Positions 18,201 to 38,812 of a stretch of 64,000 nt of DNA are shown piece after piece (within the stretch, counting starts at the first letter, position 1; every line of letters begins with the position of its first letter). Below the pieces are notes generated by a model that worked only from the letters and a program-made list of their open reading frames with translations, was not told the origin of the DNA and searched no databases. Origin of the DNA: Amoebophrya sp. A120 (taxonomy: Eukaryota; Protista; Dinoflagellata); the NCBI GenBank assembly GCA_905178155.1, contig CAJINV010000004.1, forward strand, positions 10,771,655 to 10,835,654, in the 5' to 3' direction. A program made the translations under genes and the position numbers.

Positions 18201-21200
18201 CTTTTGCTCTGCTTTTCATGGATGGCAACGGCCTTCCAGATGCACACTTCACTGTAACAGTTAGGATTTTTGCAACACCTGAGGAGGCCTCCATAAGCTG
18301 CCGGACGCGTACCGTTTCTGGAGACCGACCGTAGCGTGGTCCGGTGACGCGCACGACTCCCCCGCCTCCCGCACTGCTGACGGCCTGCGGCGAAAAGCTG
18401 CGTCGGGGACTGCTGCGAAAAGTTGGACGGCGACCGACCCGCTAGTTTCTTTGCTCGCCGGAGAGCAGATTTTGTTTGAGGTCCCGCGTGGAGGAGCGAC
18501 ACCCGCACCCGGCGCGGCCACGAACATAGCAGCGTCGTCGACGCCGCTGCAGCACGTAGACCCTAGCGGCGGGATCAAGATGGTAGTGCCCACCGTATTT
18601 CCCTGCCCCTATCCCTGCAAAAAGCTGACGGTGACCAACTACCGTCTGCATATGCAACTGAATGTCGATAGCAACCTGCTTTTTTCGGACGGCCACTGGA
18701 TCTTTTGCTCCGGCGCAGGACGTATGGATTGCAAAAATGTCTGGGTCTGGAACATTCTAAACTTGTGATGCTGTCTCTGGATTCTGAAAAAAAATTGTAT
18801 TGCATGACCAGCAAGAGGACTCCAGTTTGTGCTACACGGAGAGGGCATTTCTCATGCGGTAGAGGTATCACAAGGCGCTCCAAAAATCTGTGATGCTACG
18901 GCATGCATCACAGACATCACGGGTCATGGAAAATATGCATGACAAATCTAGAAATCTTCCAGACCCAGACATTTTTACACTTGATAGGACGAGGCCCTGC
19001 GCAACATGCAGGAGCAGACAGCAGTGCGGAGGGGGCCGTGGCTGCCTCGGGTGCTGGATATCAAATGTAAAAATGTCTGGGTCTGGAAACTTGTGATGCT
19101 GGGTGGCGTCTCATGATGAGGCCACATATGCTGGCTCAGCATGACAAGTTTCTCAGCTTCTAGGTGTTGCCTATTCTGCATGACAAACTGCGTTTCTGCA
19201 TCACAGAAAAATGGAGCTCTTGGGTAGCGTGCATGACAGATTTAAGAGTCATGCCAGACAAGCATGACAAACATGCATTCTCCAGACCCAGACATTTTTG
19301 CACTTGATACTGGACCGGTGCCACCGATTCCGGACGGTATCCTCGGAAACCAAAGCGTGCCCACCTCATCCTTCACTCTAGCAGAAACGCATGACGAATT
19401 TGTTTGGCCCGAAGTGTAGTCGTGATCAGCTGCTATCAGCGTGGCGGCAATTCACTTATTTTGCCACGCGAAACGCAAGACCAAGATTGCAAATTGTGCT
19501 TTTACCAACGAATTTATTGTAAGTACGCCAACCACTCACTCTATCTTTTTTGTAACCCTGATTAGAAGTTACACAGCCCACAGACAACCTAAGAAAACCC
19601 AAAAACTAACTCGTGCACTATTTTTTTCGGGCTGCGCTAGCGCTGTCGACCACACGTTTAAGGCATGATGAAAGCAACAATTTTGGGGGTGGGTACGTTA
19701 TTTTTGACCAGGACACGCGAATTTACTGCCTCGGTGCAAGATGAGACAGCTCTTCGCGGGGTCACAGCGTCTTCATCTCCCTCCAACGCCTTGACAAGTA
19801 CTAGTTCAGCGAGCAGTTCTTCCTCCCTTCCCGCATGGCTACACGAAGCGGGGCTCCTGTCCATTCCGTGGGGCGCAGTACTCAGCATATGCACTGCAAA
19901 TACCTAGATCAACATCTGCGTCGGGGCACTATTCTTTGAAGCGTGCCATCCCTAGCGCAGTGACAACATTGAAGTACTTAGAGCTATGTACGTAAGTATT
20001 GGAAAATCTAAGTCGACCGTCCTATATTAATGTTGTCGAGAACGAAGTACCATTACGAAGAAATGAGTGTGTCGAGATCTGGCATGGGAGAATCAGGAAG
20101 ACAAACTGCCCGCACCTGGCCAGACGCTAGATGGCTGCTACATATTTGCGGGTGATAAAGCATCAAACAGTACGATTCCAGTGGGGTAGCCCGTGTAAAA
20201 ACTGCGCGTAGTCATGAAGTGCGTTCTTTTCGCGCTTTTGCACTAAGCAACAACCTGCTAAGACACAGATGTATGATGCTGAAGAAGAACGTATACAACA
20301 GTAAGTAGTATGTTTATGCTATATGGAAATCTAAATGCACATGAACATTATCGATAGGCATGACTGCAAGATCGGGCGTGCAGACGTGTGCCTCGTCATG
20401 ATTAGCTAGTGTGGCCGCTGGACCAAGCCGCTAGCTTGCCCTGATCGGCTGCAATGAAGACCCTTCCTCATAATTGGGCATTCTCCAGCTGCACGTTCCA
20501 AAACAAACATGATCGGGCAGCCATTCCCCGGGCAGGATCGGGCTGGTGAAGGGGGCCGCAGTCACGGTGGGGAGGTGCGGGCTTTCGCATGGGTTAGCCC
20601 TCGCCCGCGGGGGCTACCATCCGCATGTAGCGCAGGGTTGGGATGAGCTGCTAGTCAGTGTTGGATCTCTTGTTTGGGCATGTTTTATTGCCGCGGGCAG
20701 CCGCAGCACTACAGTGCCGGGAGGTGAATTTCGCGGGAGTGTCTAGATGATGAGTAGCTGGGGCTCGACTTATAATCTCTACGAGTTGCATTGCATTGGG
20801 GGCCAGTGGGGCCAGCAGGCCTTTTTGTCTGTCGCACGCTTCGGCTATGGGGATGCACCGGCCTGGAGCTACCTTGCTTTTTCGGCCGGCTACGTTTGGC
20901 CAGGCGGTCTCCCCCCGTCGGCCTGATGTCAGTATTACCCCTCAACAGCAAGGGTGGGTAGGAATTCTTTTCCTTTGGTTTTCGTCTTTAATGCAGGTCG
21001 GGCTGGGATTTCTGGCGGTTTCTATCTCTATGTGATTGTCGGGTTTGTGAACGTCACAACTAGGCTTTGGCGGCTTGAGGGGGACCGACTGGCATTTTCT
21101 CTCTATCGCTTTCGGAGGGCCGAGTTCGTGCTCGCTCCTTTTCCCAGGGGGTTTTGCCCCCTGGCGTTTACGGTAGTTTTGGCCTTGTTGTTCGGTGGGG

Positions 21201-24200
21201 CCGAATAAGTTGTTTTTGGAACTGGCTTCACAGCTTGGTAGCTACAAGGGCGGCCCGTCAACAACTTTACTTTGCGGCGAGAGCCTGCGAGGGGGCACTT
21301 AGCGGAATCGGGGCACCCCGGACAAGGCGAGGGGCTGTGGCGTCGGCGCCGCCCTTCAGCAGGTGGCAGCATTTGGTAAGAGTGCCTGAGGGCGGGCTCC
21401 CCTACTCGTGTTAGCGGGTCTAATTCGATAGCGGGATCTACATACCCGCCGGATAGTAGGTTAACGGCCGGGCTCTTATCGGTTTGCACGGAGACGGATA
21501 TGAGTGCGCTCAGGTCTGGCGTGGCGCTAGTTTCTTGGCCGGGGTTTGGTGTTCGAAGGGGCCGACGCCCTCAGAGTCAAACTCAAAGGCGCCAGTCTAC
21601 TACTCTGGGGGCCTAGGTATCAGGTGGGTCAGTAGCTTTTGGACCTGGGGGCGCGTCCCGCATCATCATATACGATGCCCCTCGGCGCATCATTTTCGAG
21701 TAAGTGACGGAAAGGACTAGACTTATATGGAAAGGGCTAGCAGATCCCTGGTAAGCTAATGCAAGGCGGCACGACTGGACCCGCATTCGAGGCGGGGGTC
21801 GTGCCATGGAAAATTTCTTTCGATCCCACCCACCCACCCGGTGCGCTGTTTCCTCGCGCCCACGCGGCTTTCGTGGTGACAGAGGATTCATTTTGGGAGG
21901 GGCCTTGAGGCATCCCAGTAGGCTGTCTCAGCGGTGAGGGACCGAGACGCCCTTGCCCTCTCTCCTCCGATCACGCCATAGGGCGTGTCGGGTGGTTGGT
22001 TCAGATTGATAGGACGATAGGAACGGAGCGAAATGGGACCAGGCGCATTCTCCAGCTGCACGTTCCAAAACAAACATGATAAAAGCAAGATTATGAACGT
22101 AAATCGCTGTTAATGGCAGATCAAAGCAGAATGGACCGATTCTGGTGGGCGAACAACAATTCTTATTCGAAGCAGAAGGCACGATTTACATCGTGAGTAA
22201 TCGCGATTACGTCGCGATTTGCAACAAGTTCAAATTCTTACTTTACATTTTTAGTGCTTTTGTACCACTCTAAAAAGCCTAAAGATTTTGATTCAAACAT
22301 TCACTTTTTGTCGCTGATGAAATGAAATCATTTTTTGCCGTAACTCTTCTTGCAAATTTTTTCAACCCATTTGTACTTTTCGGCTGCTGACTGTCCGACT
22401 TCTTCTTTGTATGCTGGCGACTCGGGATCCAGCTGCTTGTAACTCGCTCGCACTTCGTCTTTTTTCTTGATCAATTCCTTCAAACGGGGAATCTCGCTTT
22501 CCAACTTTTCCTTCAGCCGCCGCAGGTGTCTTCTTTTGTCTTCACCCACGCGCTGCCGATCTTCACCCAACTTTCCTGGTGGTCTCGGGTGGATCCGTTG
22601 CTGACGATGTAACTCACGCTGATACTTTCGTCTTTCTGGTTCTTTGTCTCTTCTTCTAACTGCTGAATTTGTTCCGCAATTGCTGTGGTGCTGAAACTCT
22701 CTTCGTTGGAAAGGTTCGCGTCGACGGTTAGTTTAGCAACTTCGCGAGCAAGATCTTCGACTTGCTGTTCGTCCTTTACCCGTTGTTCCTGGTCGTGGTC
22801 GACCGCTTCTTGCTTTCCAGCCTCACCGACGGAGAGAACTGGTCCACAAGCCGCAGTCTTGGGCTTGATGAAGACCCTTCCTCATAATTGGGACCAGGCG
22901 CATTCTCCAGCTGCACGTTCCAAAACAAACATGATAAAAGCAAGATGAAGATTATGAACGTAAATCGCTTTCTTAGCATTGTAATTGCGAACAGCACGTG
23001 GAGGTGGACGACGACGAGCAGTATTTTTTCACGGGATACCGCTACAAGGAGATTCTGAAAGACATCAGCACCATGATGGGTGGTTTTTCTGACATATGGA
23101 TTGCAGATATGTCTGGGTCTGGAAACTTGTAATGCTAAAAGTGAATGATAGAGGCACTGCCATACGCAGCTATGCATGACAAATCTTTTGGCTGCCATGT
23201 GCATGTCTTACGTATTCCGCATGACAAACTGCGTTTTTGCATGACAGGCAAGAGGGCCTTTTCGTGCCTATGCAACACAGATTCTCGAGTCATGCCAGAC
23301 AAGCATGACAAACTTGCAATCTTCCAGACCCAGCCAGTGGACATATTAGCACGTTTAATCTCTCTCTACATAGTGCATTCACGTAGTTCTCTTTTATTTT
23401 CTTTCTTCAAAAAGTTCAAGTCGTTCTCTTCCCCGTGCTGTACCAAGGTCTTGTTTCCAGACAAAACACCAGACATATTTGCAATCCATACGAAACTTCA
23501 GGCCTGTCGGCGCCGTATCAAAAGGAAAACTCTACCGCCTGGCGATACGCAATAGAGGGATTTTTTGATTGCAGAGTGCGACATATGCAAGTAAGAGTAC
23601 GTACTAGACTTGAAGAGGAGCCTTATCTTTTCTTGGTAGTGATGCAGTGTGTAAGTAGTCTGAGCCTCTGCAGCTGCAGCTTAGCCGGTAGTAGCTTCTA
23701 GCGCAGTAGCGTAGTCGTCCGGTCGTTGGTTCGGCACGCTAGACGCGCCTTCTGTAGGGTCTCGCAGTATTGGAAACCTCTTCTCGACGCACAGCACGAG
23801 AGAAAGCCACTCTAGCTCTGCCCGTTTTTTTGTATGCAGCGCAACCAGAAAGAGGACCGAAGAACAGCAGGGTTGTACATCTTGGTACGCAAATTTGTGA
23901 TGCACTTGCAAAAACATATAAGAGCGGGGTAACAAATTCTGACGAGTTGTGGCCTTCCCACTTCTCACCCGCCCGGCCGGGTGGGTGACTAGTGGGACGG
24001 AACCAGGATCCTGACCACGAGAACGGCGAAAAGCAAGATCCGGCCAGCTGGTCATCCGGCCAGCTGGTCAGGATCCTGGTTCCGTCCCACTAGTCACCCA
24101 CCCGGCCGGGTGGGTGAGAAGTGGGAAGGCCACAACTCGTCAGAATTTGTTACCCCGCTCTAATAAAATCCCTTGAGTACTACTACGTGTGCGATATAAT

Positions 24201-27200
24201 ATGAGGAAGGAGTTGTAGTTTTCCACGCCATACGCCGGGGCACACTTTCAGCAAGGCACAGCTGGCCACCGATGGAGGCGGTTGCTGGAAAATCGCCACG
24301 AAGGACCTGCGTGCCTTCTACCTAGAGGACGTGCCACCGCAATTTGGTGCGCAGCTGCAGGAGGCCTTTCGCAAATTCGCGAACGCTGCCTACGGTCCGG
24401 CAAGCCTGGTATCCAATTGAAAACGTCAAGGGTTGAAAACGTCTGCTCGGAGGACTTCGAATTCTTTCATATGGTCAGCAAGTTTCTAGCTTTGTATGAT
24501 ACGACTAGCAAATGCAACCAGAGTGAAGCAAAAAGATCTTCTTTGAATCTCCATCGCATCTTTTGACGTGGATAAGTATGCGCTTTTTATCTCTTGGCTC
24601 CTTTGAAATCTATCTGGTGGTGGTTTTCGTCCATTTATCAGTTACAGCAAGAACACGCCAGTAGGGTATAGACATCACATTTGTTGGAACTAGGCAAAAA
24701 TGTCCTGCAAACTTGAAAGAGCATGCCATGCGCATTCCCTCGTCCATGACTGAATTGGATTCACTTTTGCATGTAAGTCGATATAAATCGACCACTTGGA
24801 TGCAAGTACAACTTACAAATAAAATGTGAAGAGACCCCGCCGGCCGCGTTTTTCTGTGAGAGACGCATTTTGTTTTCACCAAGACGGACGAAGGGACAGA
24901 CGATTAAACCGCGTTTTCAATTTGATGTCTCTTCGCGTTCGCGCACTGCAACGGCGGCCTCGGCGCTACCGCCGGTTTATGAAGTGGAAAGAATTTAGCT
25001 CTCGCTCTGCCACAGTTCTATGTATGTTTTTCGTTTTTTCTTCCGGGATACGATCTCCAAGCGAAAGGTACTAAACTTGCTCACTGGGCGGGCAAGTTTT
25101 TTTTTTTCAGATTCGCTGACGCAGGGCAGGGAAGAAAACGAAAAAGAGATTGATGATTATTAATTTACCCACTGAGGTGGACGACGAGGGCAAGGTTTTT
25201 CCTAGGATTTGCGGGGACAAGTATCGGCGACGGGGCGACCAAGGATGGCTGGCATTTGTACGACCCCCTGGCGGAATATGGTATACTTTAGTTATAATTT
25301 TTTCAAAAGCAAATGCAAAGGTTAAGAAAGGTCCGGATCGATAATGGTCATTATTTTTTCTTTATCTTTTGCAGTACCTACTTAGCTCTAGCCAGCGATA
25401 AAGTAAGAATGTAATAAATTCCAGGTCGCATGTTATCCTCCGTGATATAATCGTCCCCACGACCACCACGACCCGCTGCAAATTAGGTACGAGGAAGATG
25501 AAAAAAACTCTGCTTGGCAAGAAGCTCTGTGAGTTAGCATGGTTTGTAGCGGCATATATAATATCAAATAAAGCTCGACTTGGCTTAGGCTTTCTTCTTT
25601 ACTCTGGTTTTCTAATGCTATGCAGGTCGGGTGTTGTCGTGGTAAGGTCGTTTTTTCACAGGATGCGTGGGCATCGATATGACGGAGGGGCCGGGCGACT
25701 CACCCTGGCGGCTGTATGCCCTGCAAAAGCAATACATACTTGATGCGGGCGGCTTTGGAGTGCCGGAATGGCATAAAAGAGAAAAGCAACCATGTATAGA
25801 GATCTGTCATTTTGCATTTCTTGTGGCTCATTCGAGCGAATCGCAAGAGGTCTGGAGGTTTTGCGAGAAGACAGAAATATGCATGCCCGAGGGGAATTTC
25901 TGGAAAGAAGCAGCAGGCTTTTACGCTCGCCAGTAGCGGCAGTTCTGCTTCTGCAGACCAAGACCGCGATAATTAAACTGGCTTCCAGCACGACCCAGCA
26001 TTCATCCATCGTGCCTTGCAGATCCAGATTCACCTTACGATGAGAATGAGAAACGTCAATATCATATCGCACGGCCAGTTCAGAAGGAGTATCCGCTATA
26101 ATCATAGCCCAGATTCTTCTACTTGAGTTTCTTTTACGTTTAACTGCAAACCCAATCAACATCCGGTATTGTGCTAATTTGCAATGTATCAAACGCAAAT
26201 AGGTGTGTTGGAAGAATGCAGATAATTGATACTTCTCATGGTGCAGGTTTTGAATCTGCCAAATAAAGGCCTGAAATGCACACATCAGAGCAGCACAAAT
26301 TCTACGGAGGCTTTGCCATGCGCTGTCTGCGTGAGAAGAAATGCCCCCTCCTGGAAGCAAAGAGCGCATTTCTTTTGCCGTGCCGGCTATGCAAGACAGA
26401 CTTTATTTGCCTATTCCAGAATCCGCCATCACAAGTTCGCATTCTTCCAAACCCAGAAATCTTTGCAATCCATACAATGCATAGGAGGTCGAGCGTGAAT
26501 AAGAGCTACCAGCTCTGCGAGAGCTACCCGCAATGGCTGGTGGTGCCCAAGTATCCTGTGCAAGAGTTCGATATCGTGCTCGCGGTACTCATCTGTGTCT
26601 GTCCGATGCAGCATCTTCACCGATTATTGCCTTTTTGCAAGAAGGTTAGGCTTGACAAGTCGCATTTTACTTATTAATTTGTTCTTCGATTCCGAGAATA
26701 GAAAGTTGTAGTAGAGCTGCCAGTTGTTTACGTTTAGTTGTTCTACGTAGCGAGAAAGCACTGCTCGATAAGTATTTCTTTTGCACTGCATACCACGCGA
26801 GTATCGGACCCGGTGCTGCTGGCGGTGAGTAACTACCGCAAGAAGAAGCGGATCCCCTCTCTGAGCTGGTGCGGGGTATTCAAGAAAAAAACATTGTAGG
26901 TGTAACTTTTTTGGAGGAACAGCATTACAAATTTGTCTGGCATGACAGCAGAAACATGTCATGCGCAGATAGTACGTGAAAACGCCCTGTAATGGACCCT
27001 ACGATGCATGCCAAGCATGACAGACGCAATCACTTTGCATGTTGCGCATCACAAATTTACACCAACAACGTTTTTTTCTTAGATACGGCGGCCCCGCGCT
27101 GCACTACGCCTGCGTGTTCCGCTCCTCGCAGCCATGCGACGGGCTTTGGGGCAACAGTTCCGAGGCGGACGAACGCCTCCTCCGGGAAATTGCGACGGGG

Positions 27201-30200
27201 AAACAGATATCCGCAGCAAAAGCAAAACTAACGTATTACTCATGGTGCGCCTCCACAATAAAGCTGCACAAGAAACTGAAACGAAGAAAGTAAGTAATTT
27301 AGATAAGTATTAGACTAGAAGAAAAAAATTAAAATTTCACAAAATTTTTACCGAGAAGACATGCCCCTGTCACAGAACAATATGGGCATGCAGGTGCATG
27401 AAACTGTAGACGATATCAGACCTGCAGACCCACTCATCTGCACGACTTTCTATGTGAGTACCTGTGCACAAACATGATATGGCTACCGTGTGTCTCCGCG
27501 CGTCGATGGTTTTGCGCTGGATAGCCAAATATCAAATGCAAATATGTCTGGGTCTGGAAGGATGCAAGGTTTGTCATGCACATTTTGCATGACTCCTGAT
27601 GTCTGTGATGCATGCCCTAGCATTAAATATTTCGTGAGGGCTTTCTGATGCCTAGACCGCATGAGAAATGCCCCCTCACCGTGGCAAAATCTGGACCGCT
27701 TTTGCTGCTCATGCAATACAGATTTTTGTAGAATCCAAATGCAGCATCACAAGTTGCATCCTTCCAGACCCAGACATATTTGCAATGCATACCAAATGGC
27801 CTCTCCAAGCCGCTCTTCGTCCTGGATCTTCGTACGCACAAATCCGCTTTGGGAAACAAGGCCGGGGGCGGCGGGTAAGAAACCATGAAGCAGCGAATAT
27901 TATTGCACTATATTCTTCTCTTCCTTGCGATCGCTTTACCTTTACTTCAAAGTACTTAATACGATGCCATGAAGTGTATTTTCGCACTAGGTTGATGCAC
28001 AAGTGAGTAAAAATCTTTCCGGTTTGTTGTTTGACAAGTACGCATTACATTTAGTATAGCTATAGCTATAGTCGTCTGGTTTAGAAGTCTCGACGACGGC
28101 ACTGGTGTAGTAACTTGTGATCGCTACAGGTATGAGGACTACTCCTTTTGTCAGCTGGAGTTCGCGTATCAGAGTGCCCAACTCCCCCTCCCTGTCCTTA
28201 TTTGTCGCGCAAACAGCGAATCCAGATCAAGTCTTTGCATTGTTCGCATGGCAGGCTCGGACCGCCAGAAGAGTGCTGCAACCTTGTGTAAATTCGTCTT
28301 GCAAATGCAAATAATAAACCTGCTCTCTTGCCGACGCTTGTTCCATTCCTGTGGATGCCCTTCTATAAATAAATCAGAGGGAGGGGCAGTTGTGCACTTC
28401 CATATCGAGGGGATTCCGAACATACACGCAGTCCGAGACTCCTACGAGGTACGCAAGGGAAAAAAAGTGTGTACTTAATGACCTATGTTGTACTCATGCC
28501 ATGGTCGGAGAACGTCGCGGACGTCGATGCACGATTCCCGGCCGATTTTCAGCCTATGCACATTGCATGAGAAACTGAAATTATGCAAATTTTTGATATG
28601 ATTTGCCAGATAGATGTGAAGGAAAAGATGTATTTGACGTGAAGGAGAAAATCGTGCTGCGAGCGTGGTGCCCCTGTCGCGCTGGGGAGAATATAATTGC
28701 AGTCTTTTTCTTCGAAGACGGTGTACGTAGCTGTATCTGTATGTTGCTCGGTACTGCTGCAAAAGTGCAGAGTTAATAGAGGATGAACACGCTTTTTTCC
28801 CTTTGGATACGAGAAAATGGAGAAAGCGGTGTGTCGCATCGCCTACAACCAAGCGGGTTCCTGTATCATATCGAATACACGGGATACAAAACAAGTTGCA
28901 GATGAATCGATGATGTAGAAGTACTATGTATGTGAACCTTTTTGATGCTTTTTGCTTTTGCTGCAGAAGATGCTATTGTCTCGGAATGATGATAGATTAT
29001 GTTTCTTTTTCGGTCTCTGCGGACGCCTTGCGGATCACGATATGCACTGCAAACATGTAGTCTGGGCCTTGTGATGTGATGAATGAGTGAATGTGGACTT
29101 GTTGTGCGCTTACTGCGAATGGTTTCACGAGAACCCGTAACGCATGAAGGAGATAATAAAAAGCCACGCCTCCGCCACAACAATTGTCATCATTTAAAAC
29201 ACAGCTTGTCGTGCTGACGCGCAATTCGACTAGCTTCTGTTCAATGGGATACACGTTTAGAATATCGTGATCGTCCCGCCGAAGTAGAAGTGGGTATTGG
29301 TATGCGATGGAGTTGTTCTCCCGCGCTCATCTCGCAGGAAGTACGTACTATACTGGGATTGCAAGAATAGATGAAAATGTCGAGCACTCCATTTCCAGAG
29401 GGCAACCCGACGAAGACATGTTTGTAGTGCATATCTGATTTCCATTTCCGTATGATACTCGGGTACACCGACGTGGGAAACAGCCTGTGGTTTGAGAATC
29501 TCAGCCTGATCCTGCAAGCGGCCGCGAACGTTGCGTGGAAAATGCGGCAGAACCGGGCCTGTCTGGTGCACTGCAGCGACGGCTGGGTATGCATCAAAAA
29601 TATTGTAGCTCCAAGTCTGGATTTCGCTGACCACTAGCGGAGGATCAAAAAAAACACGTGCCTAATTATTAATTTTTATTAGTACATGATTTGGATTCAT
29701 GTGACAACGCGCAGCATCATCGAAGCATCAATTATGATCGTTATGATCGTTGCATTTTTTCCATTAGCAGCAGGGGCACCTAGTGTAGTTGTCATGACGG
29801 AACACGTAAGTACGTTTACGTAGCCACGTGGCTAGGAGGGTTTCAAGTCGTTTACCGTGGCTTCCTGAAGACGTGAAGACTAAATATACCCTGAATATTA
29901 AAACGGTAACAAGCCCGATGAATGCGACACGGAAATACAAAAGACTTGAATTACACTGGAGAAAAACGCAACTTCGGCACATAAATCTATGCAACAAGCA
30001 CCATGAAAGAGCCTCCTCCAAACCTTGAATTATTGAGCGATGAATTAGAATTCCAGACCTGGAGGACATATTTACACCTGATACGGGGACCGCACCGCGC
30101 AAAACACGACGTTGGCCATGCTCAGTCTCGACCCATTTTACCGCACGATCGAAGGTATGTTATTTGCTTGTGTACCTATAGGTGGGACTGGGAGAAAATT

Positions 30201-31730
30201 TTTAGCATTCAAGAACTATTCCTGCAGGAACATCATCTCTCCTAGTACTTCTCTTATGCGATATGATCAAAAATCGAGGGACAGCTCTGGTACTGCACAC
30301 GGCCGCTCCTGCACTACCTCCGTAATTGAGAATGACCACCTTTGCTTTATTACCGGACTCCTCTGCTGCCTCACAACAGGTTTCTGCGTGCTGATTCAGA
30401 AGGAGTGGTGTTCGTACGGACACCAGTTTAAGACGCGGCTGGCGACCAGCCAAAAAGCGACGGGAGAATACTCGCCGGTCTTTTTTCAGTGGCTGGACTG
30501 TGTGTACCAATTCGCGGTCCTGCAGCACCCCGAGCGCTTCGAGTTCAACGAGCAGCTACTGTATCATCTGCAAATGTGCCTGCTGAGTCGGCGCGGAAAT
30601 AAAGATATAAGTGTATACTGAGTTGTGATGCTAATTTTTGCATAAAAGATGAGTGGTCACTTGTACGGTATTTTCCCACGATTTATTGCAAAGTTTTTAA
30701 GTAGTCGTGTTTCGGACGACAACGAAATGGGCTCCCTGCAGCACGACATCAAAAGAAATCGCTACTTCCCTCCATGCAACACAGTAGATCTTGTTGCCCT
30801 TCAAATCTGCATGACAAGTCCGGACGCAGACAAATTTCCAATGCATATGCTGCTAGACCTTACTACCTTTGCCGTTTCGAATCAGTTTGGCACCTTCGTA
30901 TTCAAGAAGAAATGCTGTGTCCGCGTAACTTAAAAAAACCCACAACATGTTGATAAATTTGCCTTGTTACATACTGCATGATGACAGCGACCAAGAAAGC
31001 GGCTTCTTTTCGGGCGTAGCTAGTACGCGTGGATGAAGACAGAGAAAACGAAATACTTAAGTAGAAACTACATTTGTGAAAAGAGGCTGCTAATGATGTG
31101 ATCTGGCATCACGAGAAATGAGAACAAAGTCACACGTCACCCACACAGCTTTTTTCTTTCGATACTTTCTGGCTGACAACGAGTCTGAGTGCTGCTCGCG
31201 GTACTTGACGAAAACGAAAAGCGTGTGGACGCACGTATCAACTGCAGAAATGTCCTGTGGGTTTCTTGGAGTATTTCGTATTATTTCATGCCAGCACTCT
31301 CGCCCGGTCTCCTACATCGTGAGAAACGGACTTCAGTACGCCACCAGACATGACAAAGTGAAATTTTTTGAAGGGTCTCTACACGCCCACAATGCACAAG
31401 CACCGTGAAAAACAGAAAGCGCATTTTTGCTTGACAAACTACATAGCACTGTTGGTTCGCTTCGTGCCACACAGGCGACTAGAAGTGCATCATTCGGAAT
31501 GCGCAACACACACTTACTGCCATACCGAGACCCACGCATTTTTGCAATGCATAGCAGGTTCTGGAGAACAAAACCCGCTACCGGAACCCGCGCTTCCGGG
31601 CGAAAATCTCGCCGCACGGCGTCAACATCGGGGAGGATGCCGGTGCTACTACGCCACCTTCGCTGATGGCCGCACCTCCCTCCGCAACAAGCCGCACCCT
31701 CTCTGTCACGATCGATTACTTGCCTATCCA
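15224..31730 (+). CDS. Myotubularin-family phosphoinositide 3-phosphatase, many exons (3' end uncertain)
   Basis: PH-GRAM pieces (LLAGEQI, LTVTNYRL, SIPWG, IATKDLR), LFAF, VNKSYQLCESYP, RIPSLSW, RSSQP, IPNIHAVRDS, catalytic VHCSDGW|DRTAQ, DPFYRTIEG|F, KEW, SPVFFQWLDCVYQ, FEFNE, FGTFL, YRNP. Confidence 0.92.
15416..15733. mobile_element. Old TIR intron element
   Basis: TATCATTTGTAAAAACGTC / GACGGTTTTGCATAGGATA; flanks GACAC/GGTGC; removal with 5 nt keeps the frame (AGH|QLFG). Confidence 0.65.
16451..16821. mobile_element. Diverged family A intron element
   Basis: TATGCA..GTCTGGG..GTCTGGAA / TTCCAGCCCCAGAC..GTGTATA; flanks AAACA/AAGCA; PSN|SSSDNF in frame. Confidence 0.7.
17271..17438. mobile_element. 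Old TIR intron element
   Basis: TATCCCAGGAAAAAGT / ACTTTTTTCTTTTCATA; removal with 5 nt joins in frame to ORF 17380..18000. Confidence 0.55.
18723..18986. mobile_element. Family A intron element
   Basis: TATGGATTGCAAAAATGTCTGGGTCTGGAA / TTCCAGACCCAGACATTTTTACACTTGATA; TSD GGACG. Confidence 0.95.
19059..19309. mobile_element. Family A intron element
   Basis: Same TIRs; TSD CTGGA. Confidence 0.95.
20454..22969. repeat. Composite intronic insertion with three direct-repeat copies (20454-20513, 22034-22108, 22868-22969)
   Basis: Shared core CATTCTCCAGCTGCACGTTCCAAAACAAACATGAT; includes a segment identical to 48489-48579 and an antisense coiled-coil ORF remnant. Confidence 0.8.
23095..23490. 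mobile_element. Family A intron element whose right TIR is split by an insertion of about 135 bp
   Basis: TATGGATTGCAGATATGTCTGGG; TTCCAGACCCAG[...]CCAGACATATTTGCAATCCATA; flanks TGACA/CGAAA. Confidence 0.85.
23922..24160. mobile_element. PIF/Harbinger-like (Tourist-type) MITE, nearly all foldback
   Basis: About 95-bp near-perfect TIRs GAGCGGGGTAACAAATTC...; TAA on both sides. Confidence 0.88.
24410..24927. mobile_element. Old TIR intron element
   Basis: TATCCAATTGAAAACG / CGTTTTCAATTTGATG; flanks CCTGG/TCTCT; joins ASL|FAFAH. Confidence 0.75.
26187..26474. mobile_element. Family A element nested in the right end of another intron
   Basis: TATCAAACGCAAATAG / TTCCAAACCCAGAAATCTTTGCAATCCATA; TSD CAATG; host end TTTGCAATG|CATA. 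Confidence 0.85.
26552..26792. mobile_element. Family D intron element
   Basis: TATCCTGTGCAAGAG / CTTTTGCACTGCATA; flanks CCAAG/CCACG; LVVPK|RVSD. Confidence 0.85.
26877..27085. mobile_element. Family E intron element
   Basis: TATTCAAGAAAAAAACATTGTAGGTGTAA / TTACACCAACAACGTTTTTTTCTTAGATA; flanks CGGGG/CGGCG. Confidence 0.88.
27530..27791. mobile_element. Family A intron element (opposite orientation to the 18723 copy)
   Basis: Family A TIRs; TSD CCAAA; interior is the reverse complement of the 18723 copy. Confidence 0.95.
29588..30083. mobile_element. Diverged family A-like intron element splitting the phosphatase P-loop
   Basis: TATGCA..AAATATTGT..CTCCAAGTCTGGA / TCCAGACCTGGAGGACATATTTACACCTGATA; flanks CTGGG/CGGGG; HCSDGW|DRT. 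Confidence 0.88.
30155..30379 (+). other. Canonical GT-AG intron
   Basis: GAAG|GTATGT...ACAACAG|GTTTC restores YRTIEGFCVL. Confidence 0.9.
30899..31164. mobile_element. Family E-like intron element following a micro-exon of about 12 nt (30886-30897)
   Basis: TATTCAAGAAGAAATGCTGTGT / ACACAGCTTTTTTCTTTCGATA; flanks CTTCG/CTTTC; FGTF|LADNE. Confidence 0.8.
31236..31553. mobile_element. Diverged family A intron element that now has GT...CAG boundaries
   Basis: TATCAACTGCAGAAATGT / CATTTTTGCAATGCATA; flanks GCACG/GCAGG; VWTH|VLENK. Confidence 0.85.
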
Positions 31731-33074
31731 GTTCTATCCCACAGAAAAGTTGCTAGTGCAGCACGACCTTATCCGTTCACGTATGAGTATGCTCAGACAA
31801 ACAGAAAAATGAAAGAGCATGCTAATGCTATCACCTCGTGCTGGAGCGGCCTAACCAGGACCATGCTCCTGTATTTATTCAGCATCTCCTCGGCAAAAAT
31901 GCTGACAGATCCACTTTTTGCTTGTTTTCAACAGCATGCGCGGAGGTCGTGCACGATCATGTTGGTGTGCTACTAGCTTTTTTCTGGGTGATAAATTCTC
32001 ACAGGCACGGCTGAAACTGTGGGAGAAATTCTGGCTACGGTATCACCCACACCTGTGGCTGATGGACCGCTCAACATGATGCAGTGGATAGGTATTTTTC
32101 GATCGGACCACCGGTCCGGTTTGGGCTGCATAATTCCTTTATATAATTGTTCGTAAAAAGGATGCGACGCAGGTAGAAGTACCTGTAGCAAGGACCGCAT
32201 TCTCTCTACCGAATTCTCCCGATACACCCGTAGCTATGTAGACTTTTTTAACAAAAAGAAAAAACTCAAATAAAGATAAAGATGAACGCAAGATTGATTT
32301 GGAACCCCGACAGACGAGACCTTTTAACAAGTATCGCAAAAAAAGACGACACAGACACTGGCATTGAAACTGCTCCCATTCTTAGATATGATGTTGGATC
32401 ATTCATAGCGCTTGGCTTGCCTACGTCCGACACGTCTGTCATGAAGAAGGATGCTCTGATGTTCTGAATTTCTTATATAAGATAAGCGAACAGCTGCATG
32501 ACGACCACGACTTTTGTAAAAGCGCGATCATCAATGGAAATCTTGACAAACGTCGTGTGCAGCATGTATCTTTTTGCGGATCGAAGTTCAACGCAGTTTT
32601 GGTTTTGCAGCTTTTTCTTTATAGATACAACTTTCAGCCTAGAAGACACATGTAGGAGCCGGTGTGTAGGTGAGTTGCAACCACTTACCACGTAGCGCAT
32701 TGAAGACCATTGGCCCGCCGTACTAATCGTTCTTGTGCAGAAAGAACATGAATTTCGATAGAGTTCCAGTTCTACAAACAAAAGCACCGAGCTCCGCAAT
32801 AACTTCTTGAAATGATGGACTACTTTTGCTGGCTTGTACTCACTCCTGGTGATCTACGCAGGATCACAACTGTATCAGGATCATCTCCATATCTCTTCTT
32901 TGTTAATGCCAGGTTTTACGCCATACCTTAAAAGAGTTTTCGCTTTGTTTATTAGAAAACCGCGGCGCACGAGATCTTCATTTTACTCAGATCGATTTGC
33001 TATATTCTAGTGCTACCTCTGAAAGACCTCTTTGACGTTTTTGTTTTGAATTAGAGACGCACGCATCCTTTAAC

Positions 33075-36000
33075 ATGTCGCTGAGTAGCAACAAGCGCAG
33101 TCGGGAGGAGGCATTGCTTGAGGATGAGGACGTATGCGAAGAAAAAAGTGTTTTACGGATACTTACTTAATACACTCCTTACGGTTACGTCGTACAACTG
33201 TGTGTGTATGTTCTTGTCTTCACACAGTAGAGCACAGCAAACGCAAACCTGTCTTGCTGTTGCTGAATCTGCGAAAGAAAATGAGCGATAATTGCATCCA
33301 TAAAACACTTTTTCTCTTGGATACGCGGTGGGCGACGAGGAGGATGTTCTTGCTGGCGGGATTCCAGAGGACCTGCCCGACGAAATCGACGAAGAGGAGA
33401 TTCTGCGCATGCTGGCGCAGGCCGACGAAGTGGAGGTCGAGCAGCTGACGGCGCAGACACTCAAGAAGACCATCCTCACACTGGAGCGGAAACTTAAGGT
33501 GAACCAGGAGCTCCGCATATCGAATGCAAATATTCTGTCTGGGTCCATGATAATGCAAAGTTTGTTACGCAAGACATACTAGACGATGCCCCATTGACAA
33601 GCTTACACTCAACAATAGCTTGATGAGAAATAGGCATTACGTTTGGTAGTTATGCAAGACAGATCGCATCACAAGTTTGCACATTTCCAGACTAGTTTGC
33701 ACTGCATACCGCATTAAACACGCCGAGGACCCGGCCGCGTTCGCCGACAGCGAGATCGAGCTATATGACCTGGTCAAACGTTACAATCTCAAAGCGGGTG
33801 CAATAGAATCTGGGTTTTGTATTGCATGACGAGCATGACAGACTCGGACAGCCTTGCGCTTTCTGCAATACATGTTGCGGTTTGGAACTCCGGAACTTGT
33901 CATGCGCAATCCTATCAGAGTTGGCTAGATCATGCACTTCTTGCATCACATCAAAATCCAGACTCTATATGCAACCATTGAGATTGTAACGTGTGAGCGA
34001 GTCATACGCTAAACGAGCAGATTCTGAAGTTGCGGGAGCTGTCGACCGCCCCGGAACTGTACGCCACGTTCCTGGAGTTGAAGGGCCTGCAGCTGCTGCT
34101 CAAGTGCATGGCGCACGTGAACACGGACATCGGGCTCTGCGTGCTGGATGTGCTCAATGCGCTCACGGAAACCGACAACTTTTCGGCCCCGCTCGCGGCA
34201 AATAATGAGCCGCCCAAGAACCTGCAGAACGGCGGGTCGTCCTCCTCCTCAAAGCCGCAGGAGACGGCGACCGACAGCCTCGAGGTGGGAGAGAAGTTTG
34301 TGGACGCGCTGGTCAAGGCAAATGTGGGCGAGATGGTCGTGGAGATGCTGTTACTCATTGCAAACGTAGGGGGATCTTGGTCCTTGTTGGACAATTTTGC
34401 ATGTACGAAGTTGTAGTAGTCACTACTAGCATGTATTGCAAAAGTTTGTGCTGCACTACTAGTGCAGCACAAATTTTTGCATAAGAGGACCTACTGGGAC
34501 TTGCATGTGCTATTGCAGGAGTCGAGAATAAGTAGAAAGAGTCACTTGACCTTGCCGATGAACTTGTCTTGCTGGTGTGTCGCAAGTTGCACGACGCCGA
34601 TACTTTTGCACAGGATAGCGGTTCAGGGTCGACGAAGCACAATCAGAGGAAGACGCTAAGGGAATAACTGACGCCTTCGGCTTATGGAAGTGTCACCAGA
34701 ATCGAAATTGACAAAATCGAAAAACTTGTGATGCACAAAATCGATGCCAATTAGACCCACAGTTTGTAGTCGGCGCATGACAAATTCTCCTCGTCCTGGA
34801 AGCGAATTTGTCATGCGGTTTAGGGCAAAAGAGCTGCCTTCTGTCATACTAGTCAGCAGCCCAACACCTAACCCTTACCAGGACTACAATCGGCCTTCCT
34901 TGCATCCTCTGCAATAGAGTCGCTTTTTGCGTAGCATTTTATGCATTACAGATCATTTCGATTTTGTCGATTTCGCTCCTGACACTCCCATACGGTTTCA
35001 TCGAAAACCTCGTAGAAATAAAACCAGACGCCATTGCCGTGTTTGCTAAGGTACTATACGTACTTACTACTCTAGGACCCTTTGTTGTGGACGCGGGAAG
35101 TGCTTCGTAATTTTCCGTTGCTCTACTTTCTTGTATTTTTCTCATACTGTAGTTGTACGAGTACTAGTAGCACCAAGGCCACGGACGGTGTGTGACAAAC
35201 TGGGGCCAGCAGTCAGGGGCGTATTTGTACTTCTACTTTTTTTGGATAGAGATGCCTATTTGTATTTCGCACACTATCAGATCAAGAAGTTTCACACGTG
35301 GCTGCTGAAGCGTATGGATGTGTCAGAGTTGAAATCGACAAAGTTGAAATAATTTGTCATGCATAAAATGGATGCCAGTTGGAGCCCAGTTTTCAAGTGG
35401 CGCATGACAAATTTCGGTGGTCCCTAAATCCAGTCTGTCATTCTGTTTAGGCAAAGAAGAGCGATTTTCTCATGCTACTTTAGCAGCTCGAGCTGTAGCC
35501 CCAAACAGGCTTACAATCGGCCTCACTTGCCTGCGCTGCTGCACACGTGCCTCGGCTCGTGCATTTTATGCATTACAAATTATTTCAACTTTGACGATTT
35601 CAAACCTGGCGCTTCCATAAAGCGGCTCCGGTCCGAGAAAGTGGACCAGAATAAGGCGTACGCGAGCGAAATTCTCGCCATTGTATTGCAGAATAACACG
35701 GACGCGCTGGTATGGTTTTGGACAACTCGCCCACGACCCCCTCGTCCGCTTCATCAGCATGTAGACAAGCAGGGCCTATCGTGGTATTATCTTGGTGTCT
35801 ACTGTACGCTTTGGCAGTATAATTCGCATGACTAGTATTTGACAGGTGCTGTCGTGAAGCACTCCAAGCCGCAGGATGCTTGAGAATTGGCCAAGCAGCG
35901 GCTCCACCTCTTTGAACGTGGTCTGTATTACAGTAGACGCAGTTCAAATCAGGGGGGCGGGGAGTTGGCCACGATCATAACCGGACAACTTCGGCGATGG

Positions 36001-38812
36001 CGTGGAAAAGCTATTGAAGGGCATCGCCGTGTACCGTAAACGAGACCTAGAAGACAATGTGGAAATCGAATACGCGGAGAACATGTTCGACTGTCTATGT
36101 ATCCAAACTGCAACAAGAATTTGTCTGGGTCTAGTTTTCTGAAGAAATGAGCTTGAACTTCGTTTTCTTGCTTATATGCCCCTGCTACCTACATAGTTTG
36201 AAATTGAAGATAACGCTAGCAACGGATTCCAGACACCACCCAAGCGCGACATGCTTTTTTCGGCCTCATTCCGCTGTAACCATCGTAATGAGAAGATGAA
36301 AAAATGAGATGATGCGACTTTCTGTTTTTTGCCCGAATTGCTGTTGTACACCTCACCTGCTGCATGCATGTTGACAGAGTCGCCTCTAATATCTTCGTTG
36401 GAATGTTGTCGGCGCGAATTATATGTACAATATCTTAAACCCTAAACCCTAAATCTATATCAAATATAAAAAACGGGTAATTTTTGCATACTTTTGCATC
36501 GAGATGAAGATTTTCTTCCCACCCGACTGAGATCGATGTCTGTTGCAAAAATGCATACTTTGCCAGCTTTTGCTGCAGGCAAAACACCAGCAGGCTTTTT
36601 GCGATGCGCAGGGCGCCGAGCTCATGGTGCGAATCATGAACCGGGGCAGCTACGCGGCCAAACTTGCGGTCAAGCTGTGCGACATGGCCTGCCGGGGACA
36701 CAAGCAGAACTGTGACCTGTTCGTTATGGCGCTCTCAACTGTTACATTCTCAACTGTTACATGATTTGTCATGCAAAATTGCCTTGACTATCAACGCCAT
36801 CGAGCTGCTTCGCATGACAAATTCCCAGACGGCCAAAGAGGCTGAGAATCTGTGCCAAATCTGTCATGCAAGACGCGCAAGGTCCTTGCTTTCACTTTTA
36901 CCATTCTTGCATCACAAATTCATGTAACAGTTCAGAATGTAACGTTTGAGAACGCCATATTCGTGGAAAAACTCGGCCTCAAACCGCTGTTCGCCTTCTT
37001 CATGCGCAAGGGGCTCAAGAAAAAGGTAATATTTTGCTAGATCTAGATAGAAGAAAACGAATCATGCCTCGTCCCACTCGAACTATAAATAATAATACTC
37101 CAACCTTCTGCACCAGGAATCACTTTAGTGGTAGTGGTGCATTTATTAACGTCCCGTAATGATCTGTTCTACTTCTAAGTTGTTTCTGCGACGTCGGACC
37201 TGCAGAAGTAGCAGTAACAAAAATGAGAAGACTAATATGATGAATGCGCTGGCCCTAGTACTTCTAGGGTAAAGCGACATTCATTCTCTCGCACCACAAA
37301 ACGAAGTAGTTGTTCTAGCCGAGTCGTCTTATAGCCTACTCCACTCCACCGATTTCGATTCCGCAAGACTTGTCGTGGAAAAGTTAAAGTATATCACACT
37401 CCTCAAAAGGATTTCGCGGAGTCGGAGGAGTATATTCTCGGCTTGATCCACAGCATCTCGCGATGGTGCTCCGGAAATTGCCAGGCCCGGTTCTATCGCG
37501 CGGAAAACTCTTAGCCACGATTTCACAGTTCGCGCAATAAAGAATAATCATGATAGAAGTAGATTCATCATGTTGGTCTCAGCATGATTTGTTGATGTCA
37601 GATTTTCCGGTAACAATTTGACCGGATTAATCATTGAATATAAAAAAATGCCTCTGGTGTAGTAGGGCAGGACCAGCAGCTGTGCTGCGGAATAATTTGC
37701 AGGCACCCGAGTGCGCAATCACACTGCGCTGCCAAAATAAATCTGAGTGGTCCTGGTGCCACGCCTTGTCCTATGTATTGTATATTGATGAAAAGGCACG
37801 GTCGTGTGTGTCAATGCAATGTTGCTAGAAGCAGGCACAGGAAATGCTGCACATGCATTTGGTAGAGCCGAAATTTGAATTTGACTTTATTGGGGATGGT
37901 GGGGGGGGGCTACTTTTTTTCCTTGCATCGCTTGATGAATAAGTTTACGGAGAATGGGTTCGAAAAGCTGCAGCGACTGTTTGAAATTCACGTCGAATTT
38001 AGCCAGAGGCTCAAGTTGGCGGATGATCAGCGGCAGGAAGGCCGGCTACTCATTGCAGAGGAGATATCACAATGAACTTTTTTCATTTGTGCTCGCACGA
38101 CAGTGAGTCGTGCCACATTCCTCATCTCCAAGGAAATCAAGGAAATATATGAAAGTCTCGATCTCCTCCACTGTTGTATACGATACCAATGTTTTTTAAC
38201 GAAGACTTAACGAGGCTGCAAGAGGTAGAAGTGTGCTGTTTTTTTTTTATATGACTTCAAGCCCAAAGCCAAAAATTCGTGTTGAGCATGAGAAATGTGA
38301 CGCGCTTGCAATATTTTTGTGCCTGATAAGAAATGGAGCTCGACGCCGAGGACATTTATCTGGAAAGGTAGAGCAATGTCTTTTTTTATTCGATGTGGAA
38401 GTTTCCGATAAAACCAGATATTTCTCATCAAACAAGCACGATACACGATAGAAACATGAAAGTTGTGCTTGCGAAGATGACGCGGAATGAAAATCAAAAT
38501 TGAACTCTGTCCTTCATGCTACTTACGCATTCTCCGTTTTGATGCAGGTGTGACGACGGTCTGGCTACCTTGCAGCAAGCCGACCTGATCATCGTGCGAC
38601 TTGCCAACATGGGAAATCGGCAACTCGCAGAAGCGGTGCAGAGCCTGTTTGGCATCAAGGGCGTACCAAAGGAGGAATTCCGAGAGACGGTCGAGGAGTA
38701 CTGTTCCCACCTCGACGAAGAGCTGGGCGCAAAAGAGAAAAAAGAAGTGCTCCGCTACCTGAAAGAGGTGGTGCCCGTGACGAAACAAGCCGGTACTGCA
38801 AATAACGCGTGA
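33075..38812 (+). CDS. CTNNBL1: Beta-catenin-like protein 1 (Prp19/CDC5L spliceosomal complex), multi-exon
   Basis: NQELR|IKH..DP..F.DSE, APELY, HVNTDI, WLLKR|L, DQNKAYASEILAIVLQ, YAENMFDCLC, F|VEKLGLKPLF.FFM, RLMNKFTEN..EKLQRL, DDGLATLQ. Confidence 0.95.
33133..33323. mobile_element. TIR intron element
   Basis: TATGCGAAGAAAAAAGTGTTTTACGGAT / ATCCATAAAACACTTTTTCTCTTGGATA; flanks GGACG/CGCGG. Confidence 0.8.
33518..33708. mobile_element. Short diverged family A intron element
   Basis: TATCGAATGCAAA / TTTGCACTGCATA; TSD CCGCA; NQELR|IKH. Confidence 0.9.
33764..34006. mobile_element. Family C intron element
   Basis: TATGAC..ACGTTACAATCTCAA / TTGAGATTGTAACGT..GTCATA; flanks AGCTA/CGCTA. Confidence 0.9.
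34352..34617. mobile_element. Family D intron element (reverse orientation) with internal hairpin at 34437-34481
   Basis: Right end TACTTTTGCACAGGATA; flanks GCTGT/GCGGT; EML|FRVDE. Confidence 0.85.
34683..34992. mobile_element. Family B intron element
   Basis: TATGGAAGTGTCA / TGACACTCCCATA; flanks CGGCT/CGGTT; homologous to 35313 and 41658 copies. Confidence 0.92.
35051..35280 (+). other. Canonical GT-AG intron
   Basis: GCTAAG|GTACTA...TATCAG|ATCAAG, in frame. Confidence 0.85.
35313..35619. mobile_element. Family B intron element
   Basis: Long TIRs TATGGATGTGTCAGAGTTGAAATCG...; TSD AAGCG; WLLKR|LRSEK. Confidence 0.95.
35711..35979. mobile_element. TIR intron element
   Basis: TATGGTTTTGGACAACTC / GAGTTGGCCACGATCATA; flanks GCTGG/ACCGG; DAL|DNFGDG. 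Confidence 0.8.
36100..36557. mobile_element. Old TIR intron element
   Basis: TATCCAAACTGCAACA / TGTTGCAAAAATGCATA; flanks CTATG/CTTTG; DCLC|QLLL. Confidence 0.8.
36725..36959. mobile_element. TIR intron element (distinct family)
   Basis: About 50-bp TIRs TATGGCGCTCTCAAC / TTGAGAACGCCATA; TSD TTCGT; CDLF|VEKLG. Confidence 0.93.

Follow-up and report, generated by a model that had tools for sequence, protein, structure and literature searches.

A fixed excision register for introner-derived introns of Amoebophrya sp. A120, and tests of their conversion to GT-AG introns

Tens of thousands of Amoebophrya introns are removed without GT-AG ends and apparently without U1 snRNA, and the question is how. 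In the parts of the A120 intron study covered here (Farhat et al. 2021, PMC7789003), the spliceosomal protein set is near-complete and U1 snRNA was not detected. That study describes inverted repeats (IRs) that begin with TAT, followed by about 7 variable bases and then an A-run, with direct repeats (DRs) of 3–5 nt over the junctions, a layout found in 15% of the canonical A120 introns, which make up 35% of all introns, and in 30% of the non-canonical ones, which make up 65%. The main non-canonical types all start with NT (its Table S4), and where the splice sites lie with respect to the hairpin is termed variable, with the border unknown (its Fig. 3 legend). Introner classes of A120 are also listed in PMC12130899. 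A first-pass annotation of a 64,000-nt window (the whole stretch of DNA analysed here) had proposed that such hairpin introns are being converted into canonical ones, GT and AG being favoured as their stems decay, and that some canonical introns are domesticated elements.

Introners of three genes and the register of their excision

By its sequence, the window is from Amoebophrya sp. A120, since the exons of three genes are 100% identical to annotated A120 proteins; our intron model of these genes (50 introns; Table 1) rebuilds all three proteins exactly. Forty-four of the introns carry terminal inverted repeats (TIRs) of the form TAT...ATA, and the other six are plain GT-AG introns, starting at 25281, 27875, 30155, 35051, 37026 and 38368. 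The myotubularin gene holds 31 introns, 27 with TIRs and four plain, including the one at 30155. Among the 44 TIR introns, 41 are non-GT-AG and three are GT-AG (25714, 28449 and 31235). RNA-type joints were taken from contigs of two runs from one sample (X4 and X6), whose RNA nature is presumed; the joints used are those among the 15 of 66 and 15 of 28 matches listed, and the contigs are spliced and agree with the annotated proteins. A raw-read run (X9) matched repeats only and was excluded, and a further run (X3) gave none among the joints listed.

Table 1. Genes, introns and target-site copies in the window
Feature	Position	Strand	Evidence and remarks
Myotubularin-family phosphatase gene	15224..32079	+	PF06602; spliced model equals A120 protein P0003; RNA-type joints
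CTNNBL1-like gene	33075..38812	+	PF08216; equals P0001; 14 introns, 11 TIR and 3 plain GT-AG
CDK-family kinase gene	39615..44229	+	Equals P0006; 5 TIR introns
Introner intron, GT-AC	17270..17442	+	Protein mapping; TSD AGCTG/CTACA, 0/5 shared
Introner intron, GT-TC	24409..24931	+	Unambiguous joint; TSD CCTGG/TCTCT
Counter-example, G in exon copy only, TT-CG	24977..25213	+	Unambiguous joint; alone forces the register
Counter-example, +1 G lost, TT-TG	25433..25669	+	Joint with 4 letters between; model rebuilds P0003; conserved Gly
Conversion candidate	25714..26487	+	Joint 25713-26488; GT start, CT>AG double change at acceptor, ends GAG
Young nested copy in right TIR of intron 25714	26187..26474	.	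Sequence; perfect TSD CAATG
Third introner intron reading GT-AG	28449..28813	+	Protein mapping; TIR score 13; TSD CGAGG/CGAGA; ends GAG
Plain canonical GT-AG intron	30155..30379	+	Joint 30152-30378; no TIR
Introner intron, GT-CT	30561..30851	+	Joint 30558-30850; TSD TACTG/TGCTG
Introner intron, GT-TT	30898..31168	+	Unambiguous joint 30897-31169; TSD CTTCG/CTTTC
Left target copy GCACG, 4 exon bases and intron +1	31231..31235	+	Sequence
Introner intron reading GT-AG	31235..31557	+	Joint 31234-31558 skips 323 nt; TIR score 9 (null P 0.001)
Right target copy GCAGG, intron -4..-1 and first exon base	31554..31558	+	Sequence
Counter-example, +1 G lost, CT-TT	37493..37933	+	Joint 37490-37932; conserved Leu codon
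Introner intron, GT-AT, CDK gene	41639..42206	+	Protein mapping; TSD TGGCG/CGATT

The elements are the published A120 introners, and this class of intron was already known. Each has TAT...ATA TIRs and a 5-bp target-site duplication (TSD) that lies across the exon-intron boundaries. At the 46 termini in the window, T, A and T occupy positions 1–3 in 43, 45 and 44 cases, and A is found 39–40 times at each of positions 11–13. The introners form families within the window, have similar copies in another assembly and are removed at the RNA-type joints (X4 and X6); the main family lies in both orientations relative to transcription (37 vs 33).

For a larger sample, the terminus pattern was searched and gave at least 153 stretches (148 loci, L001–L148; 472,657 nt after merging) in one other assembly (contigs JACKZZ01...), where about 570 stretches are estimated to match; viral and genome contig collections gave no match. 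Element copies in this relative are 70–83% like those of the window, and no orthologues of the window genes were found among its loci. A TSD pair that is identical in the window and at one of these loci resembled an orthologous insertion and was rejected as coincidental. The relative carries the element families of the window with mostly perfect TSDs, that is, with recent activity. Introns were called there by a gene parser whose coding model was trained on the loci only and which leaves the target bases of TIR introns unscored. With one conservative training round it recovered 40 of the 50 window introns, a figure only partly independent because its terminus matrix derives from the window; repeated self-training recovered 35/50, over-called canonical introns and was replaced by the single round. 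The output comprised 478 TIR introns, of which 372 passed filters on score, exon length and strand, 45 of low score were treated apart and 61 were dropped. The tests of conversion given below rest on 44 window and 372 parsed introns, and the 372 are predicted by the parser alone, belong to another organism and are skewed young (TSD perfect in 264/372, and in 10/44 window copies).

The register of excision was determined by enumerating, for each joint, all cut positions that yield an identical mRNA; 23 simple TIR joints were counted, and four plain introns, the nested intron at 27207 and two microexon joints stood outside this count. Cutting 1 nt ahead of the stem and 4 nt beyond it (-1/+4) fits 23/23 joints, the next best register fits 17, and four joints (20187, 24410, 24978 and 30899) permit -1/+4 only; the register inferred in the first-pass annotation was correct. 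The flank offsets total 5 in the TIR introns scored, including those whose TSD copies share 0–1 bases. Exactly five flanking bases are thus excised with the element, namely the last of the left TSD copy and the first four of the right, and this holds whatever their identity, which restores the reading frame. It follows from the register that the first intron base (+1) corresponds to position 5 of the left copy and the last four (-4..-1) to positions 1–4 of the right copy. The letters at +1 and -2/-1 thus come from the target site, and an element inserted at NNAGG gives an intron that is GT-AG from birth. Every base of the target is present once as exon and once as intron, which makes the two target copies a before-and-after record.

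This fixed -1/+4 register is new with respect to the published text. The introners of Farhat et al. (PMC7789003) and those analysed here share the organism, the TAT-first IRs, the A-run, the DRs and the occurrence of the layout in 15% of canonical introns; the paper gives variable splice sites, whereas here one register fits every RNA-type joint tested. The parts of its text covered contain neither a conversion test nor a test of +1 bias, and a literature search, thin in its coverage of subscription papers, returned no paper stating a fixed register or testing conversion in Amoebophrya.

The part of the stem next to the cuts is preserved. Mismatches to the terminal TAT/ATA amount to 11/264 bases (6/72 in the oldest class), compared to 73/220 differences between TSD copies, and the distal stem score drops from 20 to about 9 while the terminal triplets persist; decay spares the stem at its functional end. 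Probably the cut sites are measured from a predicted terminal stem in which T+2 would pair with A-5, which would explain why TAT/ATA and the A-run are kept while the duplications and the distal stem decay.

Several other structures were observed. First, microexons of 8 nt (25425–25432) and 20 nt (23495–23514) lie between introns, with agreement between RNA-type joints and annotated protein; intron 25433 is preceded by the former and by the plain intron 25281–25424. Second, at 27207–27794 a young copy with a perfect TSD (27530–27791) straddles the 3' junction of an older intron, and the joint removes 588 nt, which is +3 from the inner stem and -1/+4 for the outer element without the inner one, suggesting stepwise, stwintron-like removal. 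Third, a TIR intron of 2857 nt (20186–23042), in the same register as the others, contains a longer insertion, perhaps part of a retro-element, in which there are direct repeats (20464, 22031, 22886) and open frames on the antisense strand, and a near-perfect 101-nt inverted repeat element unlike the main families (23917–24165) is nested in intron 23515–24236. Lastly, a tandem array of ~73-nt units (48639–49187) adjoins a 100-N gap (48580–48679), and an open frame of 2439 codons (51475–58794) has no introns, in contrast to the intron-dense neighbour genes.

Tests of conversion to GT-AG ends

The first-pass annotation had singled out the element at 31236 for a difference between its target copies that gives GT...AG in the inferred register while the TIRs remain; the bases confirm this, and the joint allows it. 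Intron 31235 is made up of the G of the left TSD, the TAT..ATA element (31236–31553) and GCAG of the right TSD; its joint is consistent with GT..AG ends, and its inverted repeats are intact. The predicted fold pairs the ends, although overall it is no more stable than shuffled sequences (z -0.94). The intron copy probably underwent one C>G change, and orthologues have Tyr or Val at the A120 His codon. Intron 25714, absent from the earlier list, is a better candidate for conversion than 31235 and the best in the window: the exon copy at its acceptor is a conserved Leu codon, and its right TIR is split by the nested copy. In 28449, AG was likely there from birth and the +1 G was gained. Polarised with orthologues, all three probably gained GT or AG after insertion, and 25714 and 31235 are plausible single conversions. 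The proposal that some GT-AG introns are element copies thus stands for 3/9 GT-AG introns of the three genes; element-derived canonical introns had already been reported, as 15% of those of A120 (PMC7789003). Two of the three GT-AG introners end in GAG, compared to CAG in 5/6 plain introns.

Four further copies, at 17271, 24410, 30899 and 41640, had been put forward as having G in the left copy only. Their bases are as described, but the list is one-sided, since the reverse cases at 24977, 25433 and 37493, with G in the exon copy only, were left out of it. The copies at 24410 and 30899 have unambiguous RNA-type joints, and those at 17271 and 41640 rest on annotated proteins; the TSD copies at 17271, 41640 and 24410 agree at 0, 1 and 2 of their five positions, so that more than one base has changed in each. 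The +1 G was gained in 30898, where the exon copy C starts a conserved Leu codon, in 24409, where the exon copy T starts a conserved Phe, and in 20186, where the exon copy starts a conserved Tyr. In 41639, whose left arm contains a nested young copy (41658–41965), both orthologues have Val (GTN) at the A120 Cys, so the +1 G may be ancestral.

A G had also been reported before 18 of 34 elements. That set of 34 could not be reproduced, and in all 44 TIR introns the counts are G 23, A 9, C 6 and T 6. At 23/44, G is commoner than in the same-frame exon background (34.7%, p=0.017) and commoner than in the relative (p=0.012), and the latter difference is also seen among old copies (18/34 vs 33/108, p=0.024). 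This excess is among the observations that favour directed conversion, by which selection would add first GT and then AG to ageing copies, the stem would be released, and part of the plain introns would be domesticated elements. The same process would account for 25714, with its GT start, CT>AG change and right TIR broken by a nested copy, for 31235, for +1 changes that lean to G, for the gain of AG by 3 of the 4 low-score GT-AG copies of the relative, and for the published 15% of canonical introns with IR/DR (PMC7789003).

The counts nevertheless make directed conversion improbable. Within the window, G is present in the intron copy only in 7 cases and in the exon copy only in 3 (p=0.34), and there are 3/44 GT-AG copies where 1.3 are expected (p=0.13). 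AG was gained twice and lost twice there; what does favour conversion is that the two gains fell in GT introns and the two losses in AT introns, and that each of the 3 copies ending in AG begins with G. Over the 372 copies of the relative, gains and losses are 13:11 for G and 5:6 for AG, and the two are not linked to each other (GT x AG odds ratio 1.3, p=0.54). Neither the expected rise of GT and AG with age nor a drift to AG (2:2 in the window, 5:6 in the relative) is borne out: +1 G is found in 5/10 young and 18/34 old window copies and in 89/264 perfect-TSD and 33/108 decayed copies of the relative. It does not correlate with TIR score (rho 0.005 and 0.012), and the stems of GT-start copies are not weaker (mean 12.0 vs 13.6, p=0.90). 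Copies that were canonical from birth predominate and also lose AG: the relative has 11 GT-AG copies where 9.5 are expected, 10 of which carry a perfect NNAGG duplication and were therefore born canonical, and among its GT-start copies AG was gained once and lost three times. The low-score copies (n=45) point the other way, with AG gains and losses of 7:3. The idea of directed change keeps one element, the lean of +1 changes to G, and loses its trend with age and stem decay; directed conversion is not supported, and rare single conversions are possible.

A target-site preference for G was considered as the source of the excess in the window and rejected, as the relative's G matches the exon background. 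In its perfect-TSD copies, G at position 5 stands at 33.7% vs a background of 31.1% and AG at 8.7% vs 7.1%, and position 5 has G exactly as often as position 1 has C (89 each). Perfect-TSD copies that are nested or lie between genes number 5, of which 3 are oriented, too few to serve as a control. A gain of A at -2 in the relative (15:4, p=0.019) was set aside, because the window gives 4:4 and the test is one of 20. At TSD positions 1–4, in the window and the loci taken together, G is lost from the intron copy and C is gained, with 35 G>C against 9 C>G changes, a surplus that goes beyond the expectation from AT drift.

By our own arithmetic, the published percentages (PMC7789003) correspond to ~20% GT-AG among IR/DR introns. 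The shares found here, 3/44 (CI 1–19%) and 11/372 (CI 1.5–5%), lie below this, and sliding within the duplication lifts the chance count of GT-AG to 18/372 only. A preference of aligners for canonical junctions may account for part of the discrepancy.

The plain introns bear on the last step of directed conversion. Intron 30155 had been cited, on account of its geometry, in connection with domesticated elements. It is a real GT-AG intron; an element origin is not supported, since no TIR signal is present (anchored score 2, null P 0.15) and the TSD-like match of 3/5 is of a kind that plain introns commonly give (34/85 reach 3 or more). Its ends are unpaired in the predicted fold, and it is an ordinary GTA..CAG intron without evidence of element origin. 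Element termini were found in 0/6 plain introns of the window, and none of 124 parsed plain introns has TIR-like sequence at both ends (4 have one TIR-like end), so that a two-ended TIR trace, which directed conversion would lead one to look for, is missing from both sets. Parsed plain introns have ATA at -7..-5 in 1/106 cases (1.7 expected), and GTAT is their commonest donor (30/85). The plain introns of the relative (n=85 parsed) start with GTA and have an A-rich, not pyrimidine, tract before CAG. CTRAY-like branch patterns near the 3' end were not enriched, even in plain introns, and no branch motif stood out. Intron 37026, with a perfect 5-mer match (AAAGG/AAAGG) and no TIR, was tried as an element and treated as a protosplice-site match.

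All RNA-type joints tested fit the one -1/+4 register, and we consider it probable that the few GT-AG copies among A120 introners owe their letters to target duplication and drift, not to selected conversion. Old copies may be tuned at +1 by a weak bias (to G and to pairing with -4), and individual copies, 25714 and 31235 among them, may have drifted into GT-AG with no ratchet.

A weak bias at the first intron base

Changes at +1 show a bias toward G and toward pairing with -4 that is weak, real and new. One reading, which we hold to be possible though short of an even chance, is that the bias concerns the stem and not GT: selection or hairpin-templated mutation would add a closing pair between +1 and -4, of which G-C is merely the commonest form. 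This reading is compatible with target duplication and drift. The changed +1 is complementary (Watson-Crick) to -4 in 22/45 cases, where 13.1 are expected with composition kept (p=0.0035), and it is not so to -3, -2 or -1 (9, 11 and 12 vs ~12). All four pair types are present (GC 7, CG 3, TA 2, AT 2), and pairs were gained 29 times and lost 13 times (p=0.02). Among individual introns, the +1 G of 30898 can pair with C at -4 (P(+1:-4) 0.99 in the predicted fold), and 37493 lost GT and gained a C at +1 that can pair with G at -4. The pattern is post hoc; it was noticed first in the window and then found in the relative alone (15/34 vs 8.8, p=0.016). Changes at -4 only are without excess (9 gained and 7 lost of 40), although selection on the pair predicts one; the low-score copies (n=45) carry no signal (5/25), and pairs are overall as frequent as independence would give (111 vs 108.9 of 416).

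Somewhat less plausible is that G at +1 is favoured on its own: the cutting machinery would have a preference on the donor side, or one for purines, and no rule for the acceptor, as has been argued for the intermediate introns of euglenids. Changes from non-G at +1 go to G in 7/8 cases in the window and 13/23 in the relative, compared to 14/44 and 27/96 at TSD positions 1–4 (p=0.005 and 0.014), though these positions are not a neutral control. A>G outnumbers G>A at +1 (12 vs 3, p=0.035), and none of the 11 G gains in the low-score set has C at -4; in the high-quality sets, on the other hand, G gains cluster with C at -4 (13/20). G was also lost in 14 cases, and A was lost rather than gained at +1 (5 vs 17), which speaks against a purine rule.

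Comparison with other introns and meaning

Nonconventional introns of euglenids resemble those of A120 in having ends held by a stem, a fixed distance from stem to cuts and a longer 3' overhang. The Euglena splicing code consists of a CAG/CTG pair at +4..+6, a fixed spacer and a 3' spacer of 5–6 nt (PMC12501133, in the parts covered), and a purine begins the next exon, whereas A120 has TAT/ATA at +2..+4 and -7..-5. A120 also differs in its clear TSD, in the loss of A at +1 and in belonging to an unrelated lineage; with TAT/ATA at +2..+4 and all four bases accepted at +1, its introners do not carry the euglenid signature. Euglenid introns whose borders are canonical on one side or on both have been proposed to represent stages of conversion, and their GT or GC starts were later explained by a purine preference at +1, with one GC-AG case left as a possible conversion (PMC4770533, as far as covered).

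In introners of, e.g., Symbiodinium and Florenciella, the duplicated target supplies GT or AG (Gozashti et al. 2022, PMC9860276, in the parts covered). They share with A120 the MITE-like TIRs and TSDs, target-derived GT or AG and an unchanged mRNA length, but they require GT/AG, whereas 41/44 A120 copies are spliced with other ends and their target shows no enrichment for GT/AG. The MITE-derived non-canonical introns of Fritillaria borealis, as reviewed in the portion of PMC11282704 covered, are likewise recent, bear TIRs, have non-canonical ends and stand alongside old conserved GT-AG introns; their ends are mostly AG-AC or AG-AT, whereas in A120 neither +1 nor any of the last four bases is constrained. 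From the published A120 protein set and this tunicate parallel, we lean slightly toward cutting by the U2 spliceosome, with the stem taking the place of U1 snRNA; a separate, Euglena-like activity appears distinctly less likely.

A more speculative and rather unlikely extension is a splice code in which the hairpin acts as a ruler. The -1/+4 cuts at the TAT/ATA stem would match the 5-bp duplication and so allow scarless excision at any site and in either orientation, old copies would be adjusted at +1, to G and to a pair with -4 that closes the stem, and nested copies would be removed stepwise. A stem broken by nesting would allow GT-AG to take over, as in 25714, a rare route to a canonical intron.

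What is new and useful here is the fixed -1/+4 rule together with the weak +1 bias, and both can be counted on the public genome. Conversion in the 44 and 372 copies is mostly chance, which calls for caution in taking GT-AG copies as evolutionary intermediates. The -1/+4 rule provides a concrete basis for re-annotating junctions, and the exon and intron copies of each target make selection on splice-site letters countable in a public genome.
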